Source of the DNA: a virus
IMG/VR virus record: IMGVR_UViG_3300044984_001443
Coordinates: 5,608 to 69,607 of that record
DNA length: 64,000 nucleotides
Reading direction: 5' to 3' (one strand)
Within the stretch, counting starts at the first letter, position 1; every line of letters begins with the position of its first letter. The position numbers were made by a program, and so were the translations under genes. The notes under the pieces were generated by a model. That model ran no database searches. It was not told the DNA's origin and worked only from the letters and a program-made list of their open reading frames with translations. Positions 3,864 through 62,662 of this stretch are shown in pieces.

Positions 3864-4253
3864 ATGCAAGGAATTTTAGAACTTCTCGCCAATCTAAAAC
3901 GCGCCAACAGTTACAGTGATCAGGCTGAAAAGCTGACTAATCACACTGACGGTTGGGAGAACAACGGTAATGGTGACGCACTGCGCCATGCCATCGCAGG
4001 TGGTTTGATTGCCCGCAACATTTCACCAGAAGCTGCGAAATCTGCCAATTGGATCCATGAAAATCTCCTCGGTCTCGGGCAACCTGATTCAGAAAAAGAA
4101 ATGGATCTGGCGAACACTCAGTTCGGCATAACTTATGGCCCTTCGTTCCCATCAGATCAAGAGTTCATTGATTATCTTCACCGCGTAAAGAACACAGGTC
4201 TCCTGAAGAAAATCAACAAGTCGCATCGTTACACCGCTGAACAGGACTATTGA
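3864..4253 (+). CDS. DUF6973/serum-amyloid-A-like domain protein
   Basis: GDALRHA...IHE...EKEMDLANT.FG pattern; ATG at 3864 after AGGTGG. Confidence 0.55.
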   Translation: MQGILELLANLKRANSYSDQAEKLTNHTDGWENNGNGDALRHAIAGGLIARNISPEAAKSANWIHENLLGLGQPDSEKEMDLANTQFGITYGPSFPSDQEFIDYLHRVKNTGLLKKINKSHRYTAEQDY

Positions 4254-14781: not shown

Positions 14782-15927
14782 ATGCCGCAAACTTTATACA
14801 TCGTCACCTATCCCGCAGGCGGCGGAACACCGTCAAATGCGCAGATCGTCGCAGGGCAGAACGCATCCGGTGCAGCAGCATCATGGGCGGGTAATGCGAC
14901 GTGGACAGGATCAGGTCAGTATCTAGAGGCGACCGGGCTTTCAGCATCGACGGAATACGATAGTGCGGCCGTAATCTATGACGGCACGACGTATTCCAAT
15001 GTCGTTGAGGTTAGCGGGACTTGGACGACGCTGAGTTCTGGCGTCACAGTCACCTGTACCCCCGGCGCAACCACTGCCGCAGGTATTCAGGCCGGCATAT
15101 CGCAGGACATTACCCTTGCGACCAATCTTGGCAACGCAGTTGCAGCAGGTACAACAGCATCCGTCGCACAAGCTGTCGGCATCGCTTGCTCTCCCGGCGC
15201 AGCTACCGCAGCGGGCATCACCGCAGGCGTCACGCAGGCCATCGCCCTCGCCGCCACGTTAGGTAATGCCACCGCAGCGGGTACACATTCGGCAATCCAG
15301 CTAGGTTCTGACACCAACATCATCGCTGTCCCCGGAGCAGCGGTCGCGGCAGGCATACCCGCTACCGTCACGCAGCAAACAGACATCATCATCACCGCCA
15401 CCGCAGGAAGTGCAACGGCAGACGGTATCAGCGCGGGCGTCACCCAAGCGATCACGATCCAGACCACCGCAGACAACGCACTGGCGGCAGGTATCACGGC
15501 AGGTATTGACCTCGCTGGCGGTATCGACATCACTTGCTCAGTCGGTGGCGCGGTCGCTGCTGGCACTGTGGCGCAAGTCCTTGTCGGGATGACGATTGGC
15601 TGTCAGGTCGGCGATGCGACGGCGGATGGCACAGTAGCGACCATTAGGTTGTCAGATGGCAGCGGCGTCACCCTATCACCGGAAGACATTGCAGCGATTG
15701 CGGATGCCGTCTGGGCACATTCAACCGCCGTAGATTTTGCAGACAAGATGCTGATCTGCTCCCGCATTCTGCGCAACAAGACAGTCACCAACCCAACCAC
15801 AGGCGTGATGACCGTTTACGCCGACGATGGCACGACCCCGTATCTCACCGCTCAACTGCATGAAAACGTCGCTGAGACCCAGACCTATCGCGGTCAGGGG
15901 GCTGAAGTCAGGGATCGCCTACAATGA
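14782..15927 (+). CDS. repeat-rich fibre-like structural protein
   Basis: ~21-aa repeats (I...PG.A.AAG..A.V.Q); C-terminal IADAVWAH and RNKTVTNPTTG.MTVYADDGTT. Confidence 0.65.
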   Translation: MPQTLYIVTYPAGGGTPSNAQIVAGQNASGAAASWAGNATWTGSGQYLEATGLSASTEYDSAAVIYDGTTYSNVVEVSGTWTTLSSGVTVTCTPGATTAAGIQAGISQDITLATNLGNAVAAGTTASVAQAVGIACSPGAATAAGITAGVTQAIALAATLGNATAAGTHSAIQLGSDTNIIAVPGAAVAAGIPATVTQQTDIIITATAGSATADGISAGVTQAITIQTTADNALAAGITAGIDLAGGIDITCSVGGAVAAGTVAQVLVGMTIGCQVGDATADGTVATIRLSDGSGVTLSPEDIAAIADAVWAHSTAVDFADKMLICSRILRNKTVTNPTTGVMTVYADDGTTPYLTAQLHENVAETQTYRGQGAEVRDRLQ

Positions 15928-45468: not shown

Positions 45469-46434
45469 ATGCTAGTTATCCGTGGTCAAAATGTAAACGA
45501 TATCTTGCCAGTCGGCATCATGCACTTGAAGAATGGAGAAAAACGTGACTCAAGAAACGGACCGGTCCTCGAAATCCCAACAACTGTTGCAGTGCATTAC
45601 GACTATCCCGATGAACGTGTCCTCTTCGAGCCTTTGCGAGACGCCAACCCCTTCTTTCATCTCTTCGAAAGTCTCTGGATGCTCGCTGGACGCAACGATG
45701 TGGGATTCCTTAATGAATACAACTCAAGAATGGCGCAGTACAGCGATGACGGGCAAGGATTCAATGCTGCCTACGGGCAAAGACTTCGTTCCGGATTTGG
45801 CTATGATCAACTTGATGAAGTCATTAAACGTCTCAGAAAAGATCCCGACGATAGACAGGTCGTACTTCAAATATGGGATACCGCTGACCTTACAAAAGAC
45901 ACTAAAGATAAAGCCTGTAACCTAGTTATCACCCCGCGCATCCGTAACGGCAAACTCGACTGGACAGTGTTCAATCGTAGCAATGATTATTTGCTCGGCA
46001 TGACCGGAGCTAATGTCGTTCACATGTCGATCATTCAAGAATATGTTGCTCGTATGATCGGTGTGCCAATGGGCAGCTACGAGCAGATCAGCAATTGTCT
46101 ACACGTTTATACAGAACTGACGCCGCATTGGGAGAAGATGAAAGACCTACCTTTGACCGTTGACTGCCCTTACAAATCTGCCCGCGTTACACCGTTCCCA
46201 TTGATAACCAACAAAGAAAGTTGGATGTCAGATCTGTACACTTGGATGGACAAGCTGTGGGGCGGACAGGTTTACGTTGATCCGTTCTTTAACTACGTTG
46301 CGAAGCCGATGGCTATCGCGCACCGGGCACACAAGGATGGGCGCAACGGGTTACAATATGTAAACGCTATACAGGCAACCGACTGGAGATTAGCTTGTGA
46401 ACAATGGCTTACTCGCCGTGAATCAAGTGTTTGA
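45469..46434 (+). CDS. thymidylate synthase-family enzyme, probably dUMP hydroxymethylase
   Basis: SRNGPV, RDANPFFHLFESLWMLAGRND, AYGQRLR, KDKACN (catalytic Cys), NRSND..LG..GANVVH (Asn at the dUMP-specificity position). Confidence 0.85.
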   Translation: MLVIRGQNVNDILPVGIMHLKNGEKRDSRNGPVLEIPTTVAVHYDYPDERVLFEPLRDANPFFHLFESLWMLAGRNDVGFLNEYNSRMAQYSDDGQGFNAAYGQRLRSGFGYDQLDEVIKRLRKDPDDRQVVLQIWDTADLTKDTKDKACNLVITPRIRNGKLDWTVFNRSNDYLLGMTGANVVHMSIIQEYVARMIGVPMGSYEQISNCLHVYTELTPHWEKMKDLPLTVDCPYKSARVTPFPLITNKESWMSDLYTWMDKLWGGQVYVDPFFNYVAKPMAIAHRAHKDGRNGLQYVNAIQATDWRLACEQWLTRRESSV

Positions 46435-46504
46435 AGATTGTATGCAAAACATTTCAAACACAATTGAAAAGAATATTAACAACACCCTCGCTAAAGGACC
46501 ATTT

Positions 46505-47035
46505 ATGTCAGCAAATGATAAGCAAATCGGCGGCAACCACTATGATAAAAGTGGTGAGCAACATTGGGATCGTATGTTCCGCTTGTATGGACGAGGTTAT
46601 TTTGTCGGATGTTCGACAGGTTATATTGAACGTTACCATTTGAAGAACGGTAAGCAAGATCTTAAGAAAGCCATCCACTTCATTCAGAAGTTGATTGAAC
46701 TTGAGTATCCTGAAGAGAAGGAAAAAGGTTTAGATATAGCTTTGAAAGAACCTGCTAACTGGGATGAATTCTACGCAAAACAGAGTTCCGAACCGATTTC
46801 CGATATTCTTAAAGAATTGGATAGTATGGCGAGAGAAGTTGCAGGTATTCCCGACCATCTCAAAGAGTTCGTTCCTACCGACCGGCAGAAAGAAGTCGCT
46901 GCAAAGTTCGAAGATCTACGCGAAAAACACATGAATGCCATCAGCCCGATGATGCAAAGAATCTTGGAAGATAAAGAATGGGACGTTGACGCCGATGAAC
47001 CGTTACCCAACGGTTATGTAAACCAAGACAAATAG
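46505..47035 (+). CDS. DUF3310-like protein
   Basis: ANDKQIGGNHY...QHWD...YIERY..KNG.QDLKKA.HFI.KLIE. Confidence 0.75.
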   Translation: MSANDKQIGGNHYDKSGEQHWDRMFRLYGRGYFVGCSTGYIERYHLKNGKQDLKKAIHFIQKLIELEYPEEKEKGLDIALKEPANWDEFYAKQSSEPISDILKELDSMAREVAGIPDHLKEFVPTDRQKEVAAKFEDLREKHMNAISPMMQRILEDKEWDVDADEPLPNGYVNQDK

Positions 47036-47047
47036 TTGTGGTAATAT
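47019..47047 (+). promoter_or_regulatory. extended -10 promoter TG-G-TAATAT followed by a hairpin
   Basis: TGTGGTAATAT; GTTGTGCCG/CGGCACAAC hairpin at 47051-47077; GA 15 nt upstream of -10. Confidence 0.5.
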
Positions 47048-47098
47048 GGGGTTGTGCCGTTTGTATAGCGGCACAACAACTAATCTTATAGGTGATAT

Positions 47099-47263
47099 AT
47101 GAAACATGAGCAAAGTTTGCAGTCGCAAGAAGACGAAGTTATCATTTGCCCAGAATGCGGGTCAGATGATGTTTCTCCGTTGCACTATCAAGGCGATTAC
47201 GCTGTTCCTGAAACGAACTACAATCATTGTAATGAATGCGGTTATTCTTGGGGGTACGAATGA
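47099..47263 (+). CDS. Zn-ribbon protein
   Basis: manual translation MKHEQ...CPECGSDDV...HCNECGYSWGYE. Confidence 0.6.
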   Translation: MKHEQSLQSQEDEVIICPECGSDDVSPLHYQGDYAVPETNYNHCNECGYSWGYE

Positions 47264-47484
47264 TGATCTGTCCACACTGCCACGCAGAAGTTGAAGGTAA
47301 ATGGGTTGACGAAGGTATCGGCGCTTACGAATATTGGGGCGCGAAAGGTAACGATGTGCAAATGGACTTTGTATGTGAAGAATGCGACGGTCAACTAGAA
47401 TCTGAGCAATCGTACAGCGATTACGTTTCTGACATGAAAGCTGACTACGAAATTGAATGTTACCGTGACCGGTGGGACATCTAA
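47260..47484 (+). CDS. Zn-finger protein
   Basis: CPHC...DEGIGAYEYWGAKG...CEEC. Confidence 0.65.
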   Translation: MMICPHCHAEVEGKWVDEGIGAYEYWGAKGNDVQMDFVCEECDGQLESEQSYSDYVSDMKADYEIECYRDRWDI

Positions 47485-47651
47485 TGCAAACCTTCTTACT
47501 GACCATAACACTGACGCAGTTACAGAAGGAACTTCTCCAGGAGATTGTTGAAAAAGAACTGATGAGTATCCAAAGTTCAAACCCTTGGCCCGGTGGAGGT
47601 AAATCTCAAGTAATTATGTCTTTAAAATTCTTACTGGCGAAACTTAAATGA
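47484..47651 (+). CDS. small hypothetical protein (55 aa)
   Basis: manual translation MQTFLLTITLTQLQKELLQEIVEKEL...; TAATG and ATGA overlaps on both sides. Confidence 0.5.
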   Translation: MQTFLLTITLTQLQKELLQEIVEKELMSIQSSNPWPGGGKSQVIMSLKFLLAKLK

Positions 47652-49663
47652 CCGACAAACTCTTCCTCGACCTTGAAGTTTATCCAAACTACTTCCTTGC
47701 CAAACTCATGAACGACGAAGGTCGTTTTCGTGAGTTTGAAATGTATGAAGGGCAGGGATTAGATGTTGTCAAACTTCGCGCACTGCTCAATTCTTACACT
47801 GTTGTCACCTTCAACGGAAATAATTACGATTGGCCGATTCTGTCACTTGCTTTGAACGGTGCTGATAACGAAGCATTGAAAGAAGCTTCCGACGCCATCA
47901 TTGTCAATGACATGAAACCTTGGAACTTCTACAAGCATTTCCGTTGCCAAGCGTTGAGCTATGACCACATTGACATCAAGGAAGTTGCACCCGGCGTCAT
48001 GGTCAGTTTGAAGTTGTATGCAGGGCGACTCCATGCACCAAAGATGCAAGACCTACCTTACGACCCTGATTCATTGTTGACACGTGAACAGATGCAAGCG
48101 GTCAACCTGTATTGTGGTAACGACTTGCATGTTACGAAGCAGTTGTTTGATGCAATCAAAGGGCGTGTGACGTTGCGGGAAACTATGTCAGCAGAATACC
48201 GTACTGACCTCCGCAGCAAGTCTGACGCCCAAGTGGCCGAGGCAGTAATCAAAACGGAACTATTCCGGTTGACCAATAAGAAACTTGTCAAACCTTCAGT
48301 AAAGGAAAAAGAATTCTTTTACAAGGTTCCGGAGTACATGAGTTTTCACACTGACCAGTTGAACAATGTGTTTGAAATGGTCAAACGCAGCCCTTTCACT
48401 GCCAAGACTAACGGTCAGATTGAGATGACCGAGGAACTTGCCAATACGCTGATTCACATCAATGGTACGACTTACAAGTTAGGCATCGGCGGTTTGCACA
48501 GTCAGGAAAGTGAGATCAGCTATCAAGCTGACGATGAGCACATGATCGTTGACCGTGACGTTACTTCGTATTACCCTAGCATCATTCTTAACCAAGGGTT
48601 GTATCCTGAAACCCTCGGTCCGCATCTGTTGGAAGTGTTCAAAGTTCTTGTTGACAGGCGCGTTGCTGCCAAGCGTAAGAACCGTGAACTTAAGAAGTTA
48701 GGTGTGAAGGGTCACACGTACAGAAGTTATTTAGAAAAGTCAAACAAAGATGACGCGTTTTCTTGTACAGAATATAAGGAACGCGTCTCACTCGAACAAG
48801 ACCTTGACTTCGACCGTTCTGTCACTGTTATGGATTCATTGCGAATTACTATTAACGGGGCATTCGGTAAGTTAGGTTCTGTTTACTCTGCATTGTATGC
48901 ACCTGACTTGATGATTCAAGTTACTGTTACCGGGCAATTGACATTGTTGATGTTGATTGAGCGTTTTGAAATGGCGGGCATTAAAGTCATCAGTGCAAAT
49001 ACTGACGGTATTGTGACCCGTTACCCGCGTTCACGGCATGAGGAAATCGCTGCACTTGTTAAGCAGTTTGAACAGGAGACGCAATTTGAATTTGAAGACA
49101 CGCACTATTCGGGACTATATTCGCGCGATGTCAATAACTACATCGCTATCAAGCCAGACGGCGAGGTTAAGACCAAAGGTACGTTCAAAGCAGGAGATCT
49201 TCAGAAGAATACTCAGAACGATATCTGCAACGAAGCGTTGATTGCTTACCTGAAAAACGGTACACCGATTGAAGAAACAATCCGCGCTTGCAAAGACATA
49301 CGAAAGTTTGTTACGGTGCGAACTGTGAAGGGTGGTGGTCAATTCAATCCTAAAGAAGAGCACCCTGTTGTCGCAGCCGTTCGCGCAGTTACAAGCGGCA
49401 AAGAACCACCTGTTCAGAAGTACCTCGGTAAAGTTGTCCGTTGGTACTACGGAACTGAAGACACCGGAACAATCAACTACGTCAAGTCAGGTAACAAAGT
49501 CCCACGAACAGATGGATGTGTGCCTTTGATGGATTTACCGCTTGACTTTCCTAGCAATGTAGACTATAATTTTTACATTAACGAGGTTAATGATTTGTTG
49601 ATGGATATAGGTTTAGTCGCCCGACCACCTGTAGTTAAGAAGACAAGGAGTAAGAAAGTATGA
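47648..49663 (+). CDS. family B-like DNA polymerase with 3'-5' exonuclease
   Basis: ExoI DLEVYPNYF, ExoII TFNGNNYD, ExoIII YCGND, motif A DVTSYYP, motif B RITINGAFGK, motif C NTDG. Confidence 0.92.
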   Translation: MTDKLFLDLEVYPNYFLAKLMNDEGRFREFEMYEGQGLDVVKLRALLNSYTVVTFNGNNYDWPILSLALNGADNEALKEASDAIIVNDMKPWNFYKHFRCQALSYDHIDIKEVAPGVMVSLKLYAGRLHAPKMQDLPYDPDSLLTREQMQAVNLYCGNDLHVTKQLFDAIKGRVTLRETMSAEYRTDLRSKSDAQVAEAVIKTELFRLTNKKLVKPSVKEKEFFYKVPEYMSFHTDQLNNVFEMVKRSPFTAKTNGQIEMTEELANTLIHINGTTYKLGIGGLHSQESEISYQADDEHMIVDRDVTSYYPSIILNQGLYPETLGPHLLEVFKVLVDRRVAAKRKNRELKKLGVKGHTYRSYLEKSNKDDAFSCTEYKERVSLEQDLDFDRSVTVMDSLRITINGAFGKLGSVYSALYAPDLMIQVTVTGQLTLLMLIERFEMAGIKVISANTDGIVTRYPRSRHEEIAALVKQFEQETQFEFEDTHYSGLYSRDVNNYIAIKPDGEVKTKGTFKAGDLQKNTQNDICNEALIAYLKNGTPIEETIRACKDIRKFVTVRTVKGGGQFNPKEEHPVVAAVRAVTSGKEPPVQKYLGKVVRWYYGTEDTGTINYVKSGNKVPRTDGCVPLMDLPLDFPSNVDYNFYINEVNDLLMDIGLVARPPVVKKTRSKKV

Positions 49664-51048
49664 ACATCGCATTAGTCTATCATGAAAGTGGTATTCCCGG
49701 AGGTCACTGTGAATACAGTGACGTTCTGTTGCAAGGGTTGAGAGAAAACGGTGCGAATGTTCGTTTCTTTTACATTAGCCCTAATGTGCAAAATAATGGG
49801 GCGCGTGCTGCCCAAAAGAGCGCGTCTCTGAGCGCTACAGCAGGCGTAGACCAAAAGGGCAATAGGTATACCTATGGTAAAAATGTCGAGTGCTTTTACC
49901 ATAGCGAGACAGGGTTTGTAAAAGAGAAAGACTTGTACGGTAACGCATTTTTGGCAAAACAACTGCGTTCTAAATTGAATCAGTTTGATGTGATCATTTG
50001 GCAAGACCTTGGTGGTTTTAAGAATCCTCATAATGAAAAGAATAAGGACTGGTTGAAACTTGTTCAGCGCAGACCGGGGCAGAAACAGATTGCAATGTTC
50101 CACGACCACGGTGCATTTTTGAGATACCCTTGGTTTGACAAGATTCAAGATCAGTTTGACTTCTTGGTAACGGTACATCCTGCGAGTTACAACATGGGTG
50201 CGAACTTTGATATCCCGCGTTGCATGATCTTGAATCCTCAGTTCTTACCTGATGAGGTGGTTTCTAATTGGCGCAATAGAGACAAGATGACAACGATGTC
50301 CATCGGTGCTTGGAAGGGTTCCAAGAAAATGCACGAAGTTGTTATGGCCGTCCCTTGGATGAATCGTGATATCAAAATAGATATGTGTGGCGATGGTACA
50401 GAGCGCCGGTATTTGACTGCAACTGATAAGTGTAAACCTACCTATATTCGTAACAAACAGACCGATCCTAATTTTACAAAAGAAATGTCTCTTGAAGACG
50501 ATCGTTTTTGGAACCATGCACTGAATCACCCTGGATTCAAATGGCACGGCCCGGTGGATGCGGTAACAAGGGACAACCTGTACGACAACTGTTTCATGTT
50601 CGTTGACCCTGCATGGTATTCTGTAAACGCTAAGATCGATGCTCACTTCTCAAGGGTGTTGGTTGAAGCTATGAAGAACGGAATCGTTCCTTTTGCAAGG
50701 GACTTGGGTTTGGGTTATGGTAACGGTACTGGTAGCATGTTTGTTTCAGGAGAGCATTATGTTAATATCCCTTGGAACGCTACGCCAAAACAGTTCGCTG
50801 ACATTGTCAATAGGTTTATGGAAACCATCAATGAAGGTGAGTACGAACGAATTGTTTCTAACAATCTGAAACTAGTCGGTCAAACAGACTATCGATTGAT
50901 TGGTAAGCAATTTATTGAGGCCATTGAGGGTACTGAAACTCCGGGCTATTATGGAAAATGGGAGATCGGTAAAACTTCTGCAAAGTTTAAAGAAGCTTCT
51001 GATAAACAGTGGTATGGCGAGTCCAAAGGTTTTTGTTTTGAAAGGTGA
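49660..51048 (+). CDS. GT-B glycosyltransferase (putative DNA-modifying)
   Basis: MNIALVY..G.PGG, FHDH, SIGAWKGSKK, C-terminal FVDPA...FSRVLVEAMKNGIVP GT-B signature; coupled to polymerase. Confidence 0.7.
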   Translation: MNIALVYHESGIPGGHCEYSDVLLQGLRENGANVRFFYISPNVQNNGARAAQKSASLSATAGVDQKGNRYTYGKNVECFYHSETGFVKEKDLYGNAFLAKQLRSKLNQFDVIIWQDLGGFKNPHNEKNKDWLKLVQRRPGQKQIAMFHDHGAFLRYPWFDKIQDQFDFLVTVHPASYNMGANFDIPRCMILNPQFLPDEVVSNWRNRDKMTTMSIGAWKGSKKMHEVVMAVPWMNRDIKIDMCGDGTERRYLTATDKCKPTYIRNKQTDPNFTKEMSLEDDRFWNHALNHPGFKWHGPVDAVTRDNLYDNCFMFVDPAWYSVNAKIDAHFSRVLVEAMKNGIVPFARDLGLGYGNGTGSMFVSGEHYVNIPWNATPKQFADIVNRFMETINEGEYERIVSNNLKLVGQTDYRLIGKQFIEAIEGTETPGYYGKWEIGKTSAKFKEASDKQWYGESKGFCFER

Positions 51049-51051
51049 GAC

Positions 51052-52029
51052 ATGTACAACAAAACAGCGATGGTTGACTTCGACGACACGTTATCGTTCA
51101 CAACGAACAGAGACTTTGAAAATGCAAGGTGTGACTACGACGTTGTTGCCAAACTTCATCAGTTGAAAGCACTAGGTTGGACAATTGTTATACAGACGGC
51201 AAGGGGTTATCTTTCTTGCAACGGTGATCGCGCTGCTGCTGATAAGAAGTACCGTGGTCAAATAGAATCATGGTTGAAACAACATGGTGTTCCTTACGAT
51301 GAGCTCACGTTTGAAAAACGCCTTGCCCAACTTTACATTGATGACAAAGCAATGACCCCTGAATCTTTTAAAGATACGGTTTTCACCGAAGAAAAAGGGT
51401 TGTCAGGGGCATATGTAATACGAATTGGTAATCGTATTCATAAGACCTCACCAACTGTAAAGAAAGAAGCCGCGTGGTATGACAAAGCAGGTGGGTTCTA
51501 TGTACCTGATAATCGCATCTTGTGTGGCGAAACCTTGTCAATGGATTTCATTCCGACAAACTCTGGTTACAAGTGGTATCCGATACTAGATGTGTTAGAT
51601 ACGATGTCAATGACAGAAGTCGATTGTAAAGATTGGTCGCATTACATCGATCGTTTGAAAGACCACGCCTCGTTAGCGGGTCTAGACTGCTCAAAAATTG
51701 AGCAACTCGGTATGAAATTTGAAACTAGAGCGAACGAACATCGGAGTTTTTGCCACGGTGACTTCTCTATTGACAATATTATCTGGTTTAACGAACTACC
51801 TTATCTGATTGATCCAATTGATATGAGCGATTCATATTCTTCGTGGGTGCTTGACTACAGTAAACTGATTCAATCTGCTGAACGTGCAGGGGTTGTTATC
51901 AAGACTGAACCACTGTTATCGCAGGATTTCTTAGGTTTCCTTGTGATGAGTCATTGGTTACGCTTGATCAAATATGTTTCAGGTGATCTGAAAGAACGCG
52001 CCATTTTGAAAGTGAAGGTATATGTTTAA
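51052..52029 (+). CDS. fusion of HAD phosphatase (capsule-biosynthesis EcbF/BcbF-like) and APH/choline-kinase-like kinase
   Basis: N-terminal DFDDT, QTARG, WLKQHGVPYDEL.FEK, YIDDKA; C-terminal CHGDFSIDNII..YLIDP. Confidence 0.75.
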   Translation: MYNKTAMVDFDDTLSFTTNRDFENARCDYDVVAKLHQLKALGWTIVIQTARGYLSCNGDRAAADKKYRGQIESWLKQHGVPYDELTFEKRLAQLYIDDKAMTPESFKDTVFTEEKGLSGAYVIRIGNRIHKTSPTVKKEAAWYDKAGGFYVPDNRILCGETLSMDFIPTNSGYKWYPILDVLDTMSMTEVDCKDWSHYIDRLKDHASLAGLDCSKIEQLGMKFETRANEHRSFCHGDFSIDNIIWFNELPYLIDPIDMSDSYSSWVLDYSKLIQSAERAGVVIKTEPLLSQDFLGFLVMSHWLRLIKYVSGDLKERAILKVKVYV

Positions 52030-52456
52030 GAACGCTAGAGCGCTAGGATTGAAAATTGGATTCACCTGCTCAACTTTTGATCTTCTTCACGCAGGTCATA
52101 TTGCAATGCTTGAAGAGGCCAAAGAACAATGCGAATTCTTGATTGTAGGTCTATTGTCTGACCCTACTATCGACAGACCTGATACGAAGAACAAACCTGT
52201 TCAGTCGTTGTTTGAAAGGTGGTTGCAGTTGCAAAGTGTGCGATACGTCGATATGATTGTACCGTTTTCAAATGAAAAGGACATTGTCGACATGTTGTTG
52301 ATAATTAGACCGGACGTTAGGATAGTGGGTGAAGAGTATCGCGGGACAAACTTCACAGGGCACGATCTTCCGATAGAATTGTATTTTAACAAACGCGAAC
52401 ATAGCTTCAGTTCATCCGAACTCAGATGTCGCGTTGTAAATGGAGAAAAGAAATGA
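52022..52456 (+). CDS. tagD: glycerol-3-phosphate cytidylyltransferase-like (HxGH nucleotidyltransferase)
   Basis: FTCSTFDLLHAGH, LIVGL..DPTIDRP..KNKPVQSL.ER, R.HSFSSSELR. Confidence 0.85.
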   Translation: MFKNARALGLKIGFTCSTFDLLHAGHIAMLEEAKEQCEFLIVGLLSDPTIDRPDTKNKPVQSLFERWLQLQSVRYVDMIVPFSNEKDIVDMLLIIRPDVRIVGEEYRGTNFTGHDLPIELYFNKREHSFSSSELRCRVVNGEKK

Positions 52457-58086: not shown

Positions 58087-59193
58087 ATGAGTCATGAATT
58101 AGATTTTAGCACCGGCGAAGCTGCGATCGCATATACAGGAACGAATGTTCCTTGGCACGGCCTGGGATTTAACCTTGAAAAAGGTGCGTCTATTGAGGAC
58201 TGGTCAAAAGCTGCACGAATGGAATGGGAGATTTTCCGTGCTCCTGTGAAGTTTGATGTGGTTAATGACATTGCGAATGTCGACGAACTGACAAAGACTC
58301 TTATCTATCCTGACAAGCATGTCTTATATCGCAGTGATACGAACAGCCCGTTGTCAGTAGTTAGTCCGTCGTACAACATTGTGCAACCTCAGGAAGTGCT
58401 TGAGTTTTACCGTGACCTCGTCGGTACGGCGGATATGCAACTTGAGACAGCAGGTGTTCTGTTTGGCGGGCGGCGGTTCTGGGCCTTGGCTAATACCGGA
58501 AGAATGGTTGACCTTGCCGGTACGAAGGTCGACGGAAAGACAATACCCGACACAGTCAAAGGTTATCTCTTGTTGACTACGTCATGCGATGGTACGTTGG
58601 CAACGACGGCGCAATTCACCAGCGTTCGCGTTGTCTGTAATAATACCTTGTCTGTTGCAACGAAGGATAACAATACGCGCATTCGTGTTCCTCACAATCG
58701 GGTCTGGAAACCTTCGGAAGTCAAAGAACAACTTGGCTTCGTTGACGAAGGTTGGAATAAGTTCTCGCAGCAATTGAAGTTGCTTTCGCAAGCAACTGCG
58801 CCGCGTGATCGTGCCGTAGAGTATTTAGTGACTCTATTTGGTGATCTTGATGTTGTTCAACGTCCGAAGCCAGCGGGTAATCGGGAAGGTGAGAATGACG
58901 CATTCTTGAAGGCGAGTCAAGATTGGTGGGATGAAACCATTGCCTCTCAATCACCTGCGGTGACACAGAAATGTGCCAACATCTGGTCGTTGTTTTCCGG
59001 AGAAGGTATGGGTAGCGATTATACGAGCAGCGATGGAACTTGGTTCGGTTTGATGAACGCTATCACCGAAACAATGGATTACCACACCTCGCACCGTACT
59101 ACTGACAGTCGCTTGAACAATTCCTGGTATGGTGCAGGAAACGCGCTGAAGACCAAGGCGTTTGAACTTGCACTTGACTACGCCACGGTTTAA
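58087..59193 (+). CDS. DUF932 family phage/plasmid protein
   Basis: PWHGLG, LYRSDT..PL.VVS..Y.IVQP.EVLEFY, LETAGVL.GGRRFWALA, SCDGTLAT, RVVCNNTL, GTWFGL.NAITE. Confidence 0.85.
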   Translation: MSHELDFSTGEAAIAYTGTNVPWHGLGFNLEKGASIEDWSKAARMEWEIFRAPVKFDVVNDIANVDELTKTLIYPDKHVLYRSDTNSPLSVVSPSYNIVQPQEVLEFYRDLVGTADMQLETAGVLFGGRRFWALANTGRMVDLAGTKVDGKTIPDTVKGYLLLTTSCDGTLATTAQFTSVRVVCNNTLSVATKDNNTRIRVPHNRVWKPSEVKEQLGFVDEGWNKFSQQLKLLSQATAPRDRAVEYLVTLFGDLDVVQRPKPAGNREGENDAFLKASQDWWDETIASQSPAVTQKCANIWSLFSGEGMGSDYTSSDGTWFGLMNAITETMDYHTSHRTTDSRLNNSWYGAGNALKTKAFELALDYATV

Positions 59194-60057: not shown

Positions 60058-60220
60058 AGATGGAAGTATCGGACTGATCAATGAACAACAGATTCTTGCT
60101 GTTACGCCGAATGATCAGAATCCTCAAACAACGGATGTCTTTGTTGCAGGTGAACTTTGTATCCCTGTGCAGGAAAAGGTAAGTGAGATCCTCGCGCTTA
60201 TTCAAATGAAGTTCAACTGA
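60038..60220 (+). CDS. FlbD/SwrD-like small protein
   Basis: MIQLT.EDG....IN..QI.AV......T.V...GE..I.VQE.V.EI..LI pattern; AAGGAG RBS. Confidence 0.5.
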   Translation: MIQLTLEDGSIGLINEQQILAVTPNDQNPQTTDVFVAGELCIPVQEKVSEILALIQMKFN

Positions 60221-60235
60221 GAGCGAAAATAGTTG

Positions 60236-60263
60236 TTGCTTTTGACGGTGGTCGTAGTATAAT
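60236..60263 (+). promoter_or_regulatory. sigma70-like promoter TTGCTT-16-TATAAT
   Basis: perfect -10; predicted start coincides with 5' end of a long stem. Confidence 0.65.
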
Positions 60264-60271
60264 TCTTGGTA

Positions 60272-60434
60272 GTGGGATAGGTTGTATAAGTTCTGAGTTG
60301 TTGCTTAGATATTCCGGGTATCTAAGCTGAGTTGGGGAAGTGCCACCACATCCGTGACCAACGATATGCGAGGCGAGAGCTTCGAGTGTTGAGGTAGGTG
60401 GGTAGCAACTCAGAACTTATGCAACTTATCCCAC
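60272..60434 (+). ncRNA. putative structured ncRNA with 31-bp closing stem
   Basis: 60272-60302 pairs with 60404-60434 with three G-U wobbles; internal hairpins GCTTAGATA/TATCTAAGC and CGAGGC-GAGA-GCTTCG. Confidence 0.65.
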
Positions 60435-60480
60435 CCCTTATCTTTTAAACATTTTGCCGGAATGGCAATAGGAGAATCAA

Positions 60481-60987
60481 ATGTCTGATGAAATGATGGT
60501 TGCTGAGAAAGCCGGTATGTTGGTTGGTACGACTGACGAAGGTGCTGTTGAGGTTATCGGTTGGGTGATGGCAGGTGATGAGTATGACCTGCGCGAAGGT
60601 GAAACTCTGGTTACGCATCACAAGACCGCTGAGAAATTGGGTGTTGGCGATATGTTCAAGACCATGAAAGCTGAGAACGCCCCGGTGAAAGCCAAGAAAG
60701 AAAAGGTCGAAGGTGAGCCGGGTGAACGTGCTGCTCGTGAGCGTTTCGAACTGACTCCTGAAATGAACTTCGAAGTGCTGCGCCCTGACTTCGTTGCCGC
60801 AACTACTGAAGATGATCGCGGTGAAACCTATCGCCTGCTGTTTGATTTGAAGAACGTCGGTAAGTTCTTTGAAGCGACCAAAGGTTATAAGTTCATCGGC
60901 GAGCGTGACGGTAAAGAGAAGTTCTGTACCGCTCGCGAATGCGTAGTCTATGCCTTCAAACGCGGCGCTATCACACGCCCTGCTTAA
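60481..60987 (+). CDS. hypothetical protein, probably highly expressed
   Basis: TAGGAG RBS, biased codons. Confidence 0.75.
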   Translation: MSDEMMVAEKAGMLVGTTDEGAVEVIGWVMAGDEYDLREGETLVTHHKTAEKLGVGDMFKTMKAENAPVKAKKEKVEGEPGERAARERFELTPEMNFEVLRPDFVAATTEDDRGETYRLLFDLKNVGKFFEATKGYKFIGERDGKEKFCTARECVVYAFKRGAITRPA

Positions 60988-61025: not shown

Positions 61026-61061
61026 GCCCGCCCAGTCTTCGGATTCGGCGGGCTTTTTCTT
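61026..61061 (+). terminator. intrinsic terminator
   Basis: GCCCGCC...TTCG...GGCGGGC followed by TTTTTCTT. Confidence 0.8.
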
Positions 61062-61171
61062 GGGCGTTATACGACGCGTTTTAAGGCGTTAGAGCACAGC
61101 AAGGTATGCCGTACTATATGCAAGGTAACTCTGATGCGCTGTAGGCGGTCGTATATGGGTTAAATAGTGGC

Positions 61172-61200
61172 TTGCTAAAGAATTAAACCTTGGCTACCAT
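61172..61200 (+). promoter_or_regulatory. sigma70-like promoter TTGCTA-17-TACCAT
   Basis: hexamers; family member. Confidence 0.6.
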
Positions 61201-61242
61201 GCAATTGCCGTTATGTAACGGTTTATCTTATAGGGGCTAGAA

Positions 61243-61320
61243 ATGAAACACTTTGAACAGCATCAATTCTACTGGTTTGTCGCACTTCCTTGTGATCTTC
61301 CGCGTTGCTATCTTATCTAA
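61243..61320 (+). CDS. 25-aa peptide
   Basis: manual translation MKHFEQHQFYWFVALPCDLPRCYLI; first ORF after promoter, TAGGGG RBS. Confidence 0.45.
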   Translation: MKHFEQHQFYWFVALPCDLPRCYLI

Positions 61321-61330
61321 GGAGAATGAA

Positions 61331-61363
61331 ATGAGCGATTACGAAATGGTTGCGATTCTCTAA
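61331..61363 (+). pseudogene. orphaned original 5' end (MSDYEMVAIL*) of gene 62041-62232
   Basis: strong TAAGGAG RBS; EMVAIL repeated in the downstream gene's N-terminus. Confidence 0.75.
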
Positions 61364-61409
61364 CACTTGTGGTACAATTTACAATGTACCATACTTAATG
61401 GAGAGTATC

Positions 61410-62054
61410 ATGGAATGGAGGTCTTTGGAAGAGTTTCCCAGTTATCAATTTTCAGACACAGGTCTTGTTAAGAAAGGCGACAAGTATGTGAACGTACATT
61501 TCTGGGGAAGATACCCTGCGGTAAGTTTATCAAATGGTTTTATGAGAAAGAGATTCAGAATCCATCGTGTTGTCGCATTGCTGTTTATTGGACCTTGTCC
61601 AGATGGGCAAATGGTTAGACATCTAGATGATGATCCTGAGAACAATAATGTTTCCAATCTTGCTTATGGAACCAGAGAAGATAACATTGCAGATGCCATT
61701 CGTAACGAAAGATTTAAGAAAGGTGACGAACATCATTCTAGAATAAATCCTGAATGTATGGCGAGCGGTGATAGAAATGGTGCAAGAACTCACCCTGAAA
61801 GTTTATCTAGAGGAGATAAGCATTGGACAAAACTCGACCCTGAAAAGTTGGCAAAAGGTAATAAACACGGTTCTAAAACTCATCCAGAAAGAGTGGCGAG
61901 GGGTGAACGGTGTGGCGCATCAAAGTTGACACAAGAGGCGGTTGATGAAATACGAGCTACTGAAAATTACTATGGTTGTGTGAATGCGTTGGCTAAGAAG
62001 TTCAACGTGAATCGGCAAACTATTACAAAGGTCAGAAAACATGAAACATGGTGA
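61410..62054 (+). mobile_element. free-standing NUMOD4-HNH homing endonuclease with C-terminal 15-aa repeats
   Basis: MEWRSL..FP.YQFSD.G (NUMOD4), IHRVVA..FIGP.P, VRHLDDDPENNNVSNL.YGT.EDN, repeats (H/D/N)PE...(R/K/S)G, C-terminal HTH. Confidence 0.9.
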
Positions 62055-62232
62055 TCAGTTTGAAATGGTAGCAATCTTAATGGCGCGTGACGGTATGTCT
62101 CGTGAAGAGGTCATGGAACAAATCAACGGGTTCAAGGAAGAGATCTTGATCAACGGTTGTTACGATGTTGAGGAAGACTTTATGTTAGAGTTCGGACTTG
62201 AACCTGATTACTTGGTTGATATTTTGTTTTAA
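62041..62232 (+). CDS. conserved small phage protein (HNH target gene, recoded N-terminus)
   Basis: LMARDGMSREE...FGLEPDYL.D pattern. Confidence 0.7.
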   Translation: MKHGDQFEMVAILMARDGMSREEVMEQINGFKEEILINGCYDVEEDFMLEFGLEPDYLVDILF

Positions 62233-62394: not shown

Positions 62395-62439
62395 TTGTTA
62401 CCGACGTTGCGGCATTGCATAATTTGCTTGCCGCAATGT
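62395..62439 (+). promoter_or_regulatory. sigma70-like promoter TTGTTA-17-CATAAT, -10 in loop of an inverted repeat
   Basis: ACGTTGCGGCA/TGCCGCAATGT arms; near-copy of the 57751 promoter. Confidence 0.65.
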
Positions 62440-62461
62440 TGCGGCTTATAGGAGAAACGAA

Positions 62462-62662
62462 ATGAGCGCTGTAGAAGAACTTCAATTGAGAATCTGCAAA
62501 GCACCTTGTTCAGATGAGGTTTATAAGATCGTTGAAGATGCGCTGAACGTAATTGGTCACCTTGAAGCAACCTTGGCGTTTCGTAACTTTGAAGTTAAGC
62601 GGTTGACGGAAAAGAACCAACGTCAGGTCAAAATGCTTGAACAATGTGGATACGGAGAATAA
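62462..62662 (+). CDS. hypothetical protein
   Basis: TAGGAG RBS. Confidence 0.6.
   Translation: MSAVEELQLRICKAPCSDEVYKIVEDALNVIGHLEATLAFRNFEVKRLTEKNQRQVKMLEQCGYGE

Follow-up and report, generated by a model that had tools for sequence, protein, structure and literature searches.

Stem-loops at the 5' termini of bacterial mRNAs, of the ompA and papA type, reportedly act as stabilisers of those messages, following the work of Emory, Bouvet and Belasco in 1992. Phage leaders can also contain signals for RNase III, including R0.3 of T7, situated between the early promoters and gene 0.3, and the site in the lambda N leader. In T7, the RNase III sites have an internal loop, span about two helical turns, and are found between cistrons. 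Promoter-proximal attenuation is represented by lambda pR'-tR', which yields the short '6S' transcript.

The locus considered here lies in a window (the whole 64,000-nt stretch of DNA that was analysed) covering bases 5608-69607 of a 69,607-bp IMG/VR record. At 60272-60434 on its + strand is a domain of 163 nt. This element resembles the ompA/papA-type stabilisers in having a helix at or near the predicted transcript start, within the 5' UTR and upstream of the ribosome site of one gene. However, hairpins of that type are short and simple, whereas the phage element has a 31-bp stem and a multi-hairpin interior within its 163 nt, behind a start site that is itself predicted. Like T7 R0.3 and the lambda N leader, it is a long phage helix placed after a host-polymerase promoter and before the first gene. 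Unlike the T7 sites, its closing helix is uninterrupted and stands at the predicted extreme 5' end, and the corresponding stems of the related loci L006, L014, and L013 (13, 9, and 7 bp) are too short; the resemblance to RNase III leader sites is predicted from helix length and applies to this phage only. The order of constitutive-looking promoter, immediately adjoining structured RNA, U-rich tract, and gene also recalls lambda pR'-tR', but here the tail is weak (score of 0.64, versus 4.33 for the terminator of the gene), and no Q-like protein was recognised in the phage. We conclude that the structure is real and striking, and that it is probably a lineage-specific, oversized variant of a familiar device; a new RNA gene is unlikely. 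The specific fold is unannotated, and the underlying principle is textbook.

The structured element and its transcription unit

The element and the unit to which it belongs contain the following features.

60236-60263, + strand: sigma-70-type promoter (-35 TTGCTT at 60236-60241, 16-nt spacer, -10 TATAAT at 60258-60263), from sequence and a looser scan
60272-60302, + strand: 5' arm of closing helix P1, 31 nt, from fold and repeat finder
60303-60327, + strand: hairpin P2, 10-11 bp, coaxial with P1 (pair probabilities 0.95-0.99)
60328-60361, + strand: central segment of uncertain fold (pair probability about 0.25; centroid differs from minimum-energy fold)
60362-60391, + strand: hairpin P4, 12 bp with a bulge and the GNRA tetraloop GAGA at 60375-60378, from pair probabilities
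60392-60403, + strand: purine-rich single-stranded junction strand, GAGGUAGGUGGGUA region, from fold and pair probabilities
60404-60434, + strand: 3' arm of P1, from fold and repeat finder
60435-60453, + strand: U/A-rich single-stranded linker CCCUUAUCUUUUAAACAUU, with an AUCUUUU core kept in L006 and L014
60454-60468, + strand: conserved 5-bp hairpin UUGCC-GGAAU-GGCAA, from sequence and relatives
60470-60474, + strand: Shine-Dalgarno (SD) sequence AGGAG, after the pre-SD hairpin, from sequence
60481-60987, + strand: open reading frame for a conserved 168-aa protein, sole cistron of the unit
61026-61058, + strand: intrinsic terminator GCCCGCC...GGCGGGC followed by UUUUU (-19.8 kcal/mol, z -4.2)

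The + strand of 60272-60434 has a predicted folding energy of -86.2 kcal/mol. Dinucleotide-shuffled versions averaged -44.1 (sd 3.7), which corresponds to a z of -11.5, and none out of 200 shuffles was as stable. Helix P1 comprises 31 pairs without interruption, formed between 60272-60302 and 60404-60434 with pair probabilities of at least 0.75 (mean 0.99). Exactly three of its pairs are not Watson-Crick, and all are wobbles (G60280-U60426, U60285-G60421, and U60301-G60405). P2 stacks directly and coaxially on P1, giving 31 + 11 stacked pairs, and CCACC at ~60344-60348 may pair with GGUGG at ~60397-60401. These results confirm the structure in an initial annotation made from the sequence, which had described a 163-nt structured RNA with a 31-bp closing stem, three stem deviations that were all + strand G-U wobbles, an interior hairpin of 9-10 bp (here P2), and a GAGA-capped GNRA hairpin (here P4). 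In the rest of the interior, 60392-60403 is a purine-rich single strand and 60328-60360 is poorly determined (pair probability about 0.25).

Within the window, the intergenic gap that holds the element has the top folding-energy density among 28 gaps. A coarse scan in 160-nt frames with 20-nt steps (mean -39.6, sd 7.4) did not sample the exact element in register, and its frame at 60281 did no better than share first place, at -69.0, with a coding frame at 15541. The arms of P1 were the best of seven inverted repeats reported by the repeat finder (29 nt, 93% complementarity, compared with 72%-79% for the remaining six). No second copy of the arm sequence was found in the window or in the whole 69.6-kb record. 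In a 249-nt fold, the 163-nt domain remains an independent unit that does not engage the ribosome site, with both the SD sequence at 60470-60474 and the AUG at 60481 outside it.

A non-coding, RNA-type structure on the + strand directly behind a promoter, also proposed at the outset, is supported: no ORF of at least 30 aa overlaps the element, and the fold has a strand bias. The reverse strand of the element reaches -64.3, 22 kcal/mol worse than the + strand, and the + strand was favoured in all four loci compared (+/- energies of -86.2/-64.3 for the window, then -27.1/-16.5, -30.7/-25.3, and -4.9/0). Modelled as single-stranded DNA, the inverted repeat folds too (-40.4, z -9.3 for the + strand; -32.8, z -7.4 for the - strand), a property in keeping with a DNA-level signal such as a cruciform, a single-strand initiation site, a replication origin, or a protein-binding inverted repeat. 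We consider such a signal extremely improbable: the strand asymmetry fits an RNA made from the adjacent promoter, there is no GC-skew turn at the element, the position is about 4 kb past the replication gene block, and the related phages retain just a short helix at the transcript start.

The promoter has a weak -35 (TTGCTT, three of six matches), and for this reason a stricter sigma-70 scan did not list the site at 60236-60263, which the looser scan found with nine of 12 matches. Upstream of the -35 and overlapping it is an A/T-rich box (GAAAATAGTTGTTG); both the box and the position of the -10 are kept in L006, L013, and L014. Judged from the -10 spacing alone, transcription would start at 60270-60272. 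The stem begins 8 nt after a perfect TATAAT, as initially described, and the equivalent distance is 7 nt in L006, 9 nt in L014, and 8 nt in L013, which predicts zero to three unpaired bases ahead of the helix. Promoter, linker, pre-SD hairpin, 168-aa gene, and intrinsic terminator together form a single-gene unit. The terminator of the gene is the same hairpin in L006 and a different hairpin in L013.

We considered the possibility that stem and U-rich tract act as a promoter-proximal attenuator or terminator, which would halt most transcripts, whether from the unit's own promoter or from an operon upstream, in the absence of antitermination. Behind the stem, the window, L006, and L014 all have AUCUUUU, the tail in L014 has a terminator-like score (3.22), and a hairpin followed by UUAU... 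also stands behind two other nearby promoter-like sites. Nevertheless, we judge this role very unlikely. The tails in the window (0.64) and L006 (0.58) are poor, with a CCC or ACCC spacer between stem and U-run, the terminator scan left the stem unflagged, and no antiterminator gene was recognised. Additionally, an RNA-library contig of a variant strain bridges the stem into the gene, with DNA carry-over possible. The unflagged stem and the tail score, set against that of the gene terminator, likewise led us to reject the intrinsic terminator/attenuator class as an assignment for the element.

All 34 homologues of the 168-aa protein are unnamed or labelled 'hypothetical', and the protein had no match in Pfam or PHROG, no Foldseek match in the PDB at E 0.001 or better, and no usable hit in the ESM Atlas. 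VIA-align gave Z values of at most 5.0, with many winged-helix rows at Z ~3-4 over residues 100-168, a hint that the C-terminal half of the modelled protein may be weakly winged-helix-like. It is possible, on the basis of the model, that the protein binds nucleic acid, and it might regulate its own unit. The structural model has two domains, with a disordered Lys-rich linker between them at residues 69-85, and an overall pLDDT of 79.8.

Known families, related phages, and RNA libraries

No Rfam 15 family reached its gathering score in the window, a check that the initial annotation had proposed, or in the five related loci. The best sub-threshold match was to a plant miRNA precursor (20.1 bits, where the cut-off is 119; E 0.34). 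ARAGORN found no tRNA or tmRNA genes in the 64 kb, in agreement with the initial annotation. A retron msr-msd RNA was rejected, as the 69.6-kb record contains no match to RVT_1 in a search whose control was positive in three of 14 genomes, and a bacterial Y RNA was rejected on the lack of both a TROVE match (the Ro60 partner) and an Rfam hit. The element is single-copy in all searches and shows no visible flanking target-site duplication, which argues against a MITE or other small mobile inverted-repeat element. Beyond chance 20-mers, no other copies were found in 50,697 phage records, IMG/VR, or GTDB genomes; an interior 20-mer matched two other viral contigs and two bacterial contigs, where BLAST aligned the 20-30 nt word alone. 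The phage encodes no RNase III gene.

Relatives were sought in IMG/VR by protein, by profile, and with three DNA patterns, which yielded five contigs with the full gene. The usable loci comprised three distinct relatives (L006, which equals L012 and L016; L013; and L014) and two near-identical fragments. A sixth IMG/VR row (L015) matched at residues 56-102 with E 1e-5 and was left out of the comparison. A metagenome scan found at least one locus, identical to L006. GTDB genomes held no homologous locus, and the 50,697 phage GenBank records had neither a DNA nor a protein match, and so no cultured relative.

Protein identity to the 168-aa product of the window was 67% for L006, 49% for L013, and 45% for L014. 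All three distinct relatives keep the promoter box, the -10, the linker or pre-SD hairpin, and the gene, and L006 keeps the box, -10, linker, pre-SD hairpin, and terminator together. Between the -10 and the linker, L006 has a fold of 71-72 nt (z -4.2) with a 13-bp closing helix that includes four wobbles. L014 has an 85-nt fold of three hairpins with a 9-bp closing helix (z -3.2), and L013 has just a 7-bp hairpin of ~19 nt (z -2.3). Similarity among the relatives is limited to the base of the closing stem, where GUGG(U)GAUAGG and CCUAUC(A)CCAC are the paired strands; one additional U-A pair there, visible on both arms, is carried by L006 and L014. The interiors of L006, L014, and L013 are unrelated and of other sizes, and a search for the 163-nt sequence in the records of the three relatives gave no match. 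G-U pairs number three in the outer helix of the window and four in that of L006. The stems fell out of register in a MAFFT alignment of the homologues, and with three distinct homologous loci, too few for statistical covariation, the apparent covariation between these sequences is anecdotal.

At shorter evolutionary distance, the near-identical contig L005 (protein 96% identical; the contig ends in the 5' arm) differs at three of 142 shared element bases. One change converts the tetraloop from GAGA to GGGA, so that the GNRA motif is retained. The other two (60416 C>T and 60431 C>T) fall in P1 opposite G, and pairing is retained. Two further changes occur among the first five bases of the linker.

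In L014, at ~1258-1292, we also observed a perfect 14-bp hairpin (TTGTCTTGACAGTT-CTT-AACTGTCAAGACAA) just upstream of the homologous promoter, which is absent from the window.

These comparisons bear on the first option offered by the initial annotation, an autonomous small RNA or decoy. Such an RNA, released at ~100-170 nt by RNase III cutting in P1 or RNase E cutting in the linker, would persist as a stable species and act in trans by binding or titrating a host or phage factor; it might, for instance, decoy a dsRNA-binding or defence protein. Its attractions are an autonomous and extremely stable domain, defined internal hairpins of which one has a GNRA cap that L005 retains, an A/U-rich single-stranded linker directly 3', and the presence of the full-length form in a ~10%-divergent strain with small indels only. 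However, the interior is not conserved across relatives (71, 85, and ~19 nt), whose records lack the 163-nt sequence. The stem is also followed by a poor tail (0.64 versus 4.33) rather than a terminator of its own, no Rfam family matches, and the phage offers no candidate partner (Ro60/TROVE, reverse transcriptase, or RNase III). We therefore regard a released small RNA as unlikely, and the first option did not hold up well. A stronger form of the idea, which we find distinctly unlikely, is that the domain is a phage RNA in its own right, excised by host RNase III or RNase E, that would act in trans early in infection. It might, for instance, occupy a host nuclease or defence sensor as a long-dsRNA or protein decoy, and the mRNA behind it would be a by-product of their shared promoter. 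If this were true, the rapid turnover between related phages would reflect an arms race and not drift.

The range of sizes among relatives, which is 8-fold, could also be explained by neutral or selfish palindrome growth, in which template-switch duplication, or the insertion of a small inverted-repeat element, extended an ancestral stem of ~10 bp and the extra length has no function. In keeping with this, CTGAGTTG occurs twice in direct orientation (60293 and 60327) and once inverted (60406), and, of three near-identical public contigs, two have a break inside the element or at its edge. We nonetheless hold such growth to be highly improbable. Searches of the window, the record, the records of the three relatives, the 50,697 phage records, IMG/VR, and GTDB gave no further copy, and no target-site duplication is visible. 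Moreover, every deviation in the stem is a + strand wobble, and the changes in L005 preserve pairing.

The contig breaks themselves occur at the equivalent of 60432 (base 1 of L004) and of 60293 (base 1 of L005) in two independent, near-identical IMG/VR contigs. This hints that assemblies break at the element through strain microdiversity or the inverted repeat.

The sequencing runs that contain the phage are lake and freshwater metagenomes. Three RNA-library runs (one study, two from one sample) and one DNA run were considered, all as contigs. The phage and two variants occur in the RNA libraries as contigs for which DNA carry-over is possible. Contigs of the exact strain start at 60439 (X13, 156 nt) and 60447 (X15, 404 nt), at low depth in one study, and none is listed over the element, a lack of cover that at this depth and from one study is no evidence. 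Contigs of an abundant variant (depth 36-41) reach upstream past the equivalent of 60471 by just 23 and 38 bases. We set aside the reading of contig starts past the stem as a processed 5' end, given that they come from low-depth contigs of a single study in which missing cover carries no weight. In the ~10%-divergent variant, one contig (X17 record 26, whose form recurs in DNA run X10) spans 60182-60706, from the upstream gene across the element to the start of the 168-aa gene, with small indels in P2. This variant may have a different P2, with a 9-letter loose end after 60304 and insertions at 60320-60325.

Proposed protection of the 5' end and its possible extension to RNase III

The reading that we prefer, and to which we give about an even chance, is that the element is a fast-evolving structure at the extreme 5' end of a single-gene mRNA, where it would hide the end from 5'-end-dependent decay, and that in this lineage it has grown to the length of an RNase III substrate. 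The second option of the initial annotation, a processed leader for the gene at 60481, is the best fit, with the order of promoter, structure, linker, hairpin, gene, and terminator syntenic in the relatives. That the relatives conserve the position of the helix, and not its sequence or size, fits a generic role in 5' protection.

No RNA polymerase was recognised among the phage proteins scanned, so we assume that the host enzyme transcribes the phage. On the preferred reading, host RNA polymerase would initiate at the conserved sigma-70-type promoter, and the first transcribed bases would form the 5' arm of P1. The transcript would continue through the U-rich linker, the small hairpin, the Shine-Dalgarno sequence, and the 168-aa gene, and would stop near 61026-61058. 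It is established that RppH and RNase E need single-stranded 5' ends, so that secondary structure there stabilises mRNA (PMC3997798). Since RppH and RNase E (or RNase J) require such an end, a 5' end locked in a helix is predicted to shield the message from this route of decay.

The length of the helix adds a second possibility. RNase III accommodates ~22 bp of dsRNA (PMC6212723), and the 31 + 11 stacked pairs of P1 and P2 exceed this span, so that cleavage by the host enzyme would be expected. With 31 bp set against a requirement of ~20-22 bp, cleavage of P1 is plausible on helix length. A cut in P1 would create a new mRNA 5' end that is still paired to the leftover short 5' fragment. RNase III cutting cannot be the ancestral role, because the closing helices of the relatives are just 13, 9, and 7 bp.

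Several considerations weigh against 5' protection as the whole explanation. A domain of 163 nt with three hairpins far exceeds what protection needs, given that L013 manages with 7 bp, and the internal hairpins look maintained, as with the GNRA loop kept in L005. In addition, an RNase III cut in a 31-bp helix could destabilise the message instead. Elsewhere in the phage, two nearby promoter-like sites (61172 and 62395) each have a hairpin 6 nt downstream, and promoter-then-hairpin may be a habit of its small-gene units.

If protection of the 5' end is the correct reading, these phages provide a natural series from a 7-bp hairpin through folds of 71 and 85 nt to one of 163 nt, in which promoter, ribosome site, gene, and terminator remain constant as a protective hairpin expands. 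Such a series would inform how phages tune the stability and processing of messages, and could supply strong leader parts for expression design. It also urges caution with very stable 'orphan RNAs' immediately downstream of phage promoters, which are often leaders and not RNA genes.

Genome setting and neighbouring loci

The ends of the record share a 127-bp repeat that looks like the overlap of a circular assembly. Genes lie nearly all on the + strand and fall into the following blocks.

0-36 kb: terminase and virion genes
37-56 kb: replication block with SNF2 and UvrD helicases, primase, DNA polymerase, and ligase
56-64 kb: many small genes

Upstream of the element, among small genes, 58087-59193 encodes a DUF932 protein (Pfam E 1e-51). 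Downstream, the non-coding stretch at 61060-61170, which separates the terminator from the next promoter, shows good conservation when the window is compared with L006 (GCGTTTTAAGGC ... TAACTCTGATGCGCTGTAGG). It is followed at 61172-61320 by a second mini-unit, which consists of a promoter-like TTGCTA-17-TACCAT, a 6-nt gap, the hairpin GCCGUUAUGUAACGGU (61207-61222), AGGGG, and a 25-aa ORF at 61243-61320 (MKHFEQHQFYWFVALPCDLPRCYLI). This mini-unit is conserved in L006 and largely so in L013. A third promoter-like site, at 62395-62461, has the form TTGTTA-17-CATAAT with the hairpin GCCGCAAUGUUGCGGC after 6 nt (-10.7 kcal/mol, z -2.7), then UAUAGGAG and an ATG at 62462.

At 61331-62232, an HNH homing endonuclease gene (61350-62054; PHROG 59, Pfam HNH_3) interrupts a small gene. 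The upstream stub encodes MSDYEMVAIL* at 61331-61363, and the remainder after the HNH gene (62041-62232) restarts with ...FEMVAILMARDGMS, so that the 'EMVAIL' codons are duplicated. In L006, at ~3880-3960, the same small gene is uninterrupted (MSEDYEMIAILMSRDGMS...) and has no HNH gene.

A cluster at 45469-52456, adjoining the DNA polymerase gene, contains a thymidylate-synthase-like gene, a nucleotide kinase gene, a weakly glycosyltransferase-like gene (462 aa), and phosphoheptose-isomerase-like and heptose-phosphate adenylyltransferase-like genes. This content suggests modification of DNA bases or sugars.
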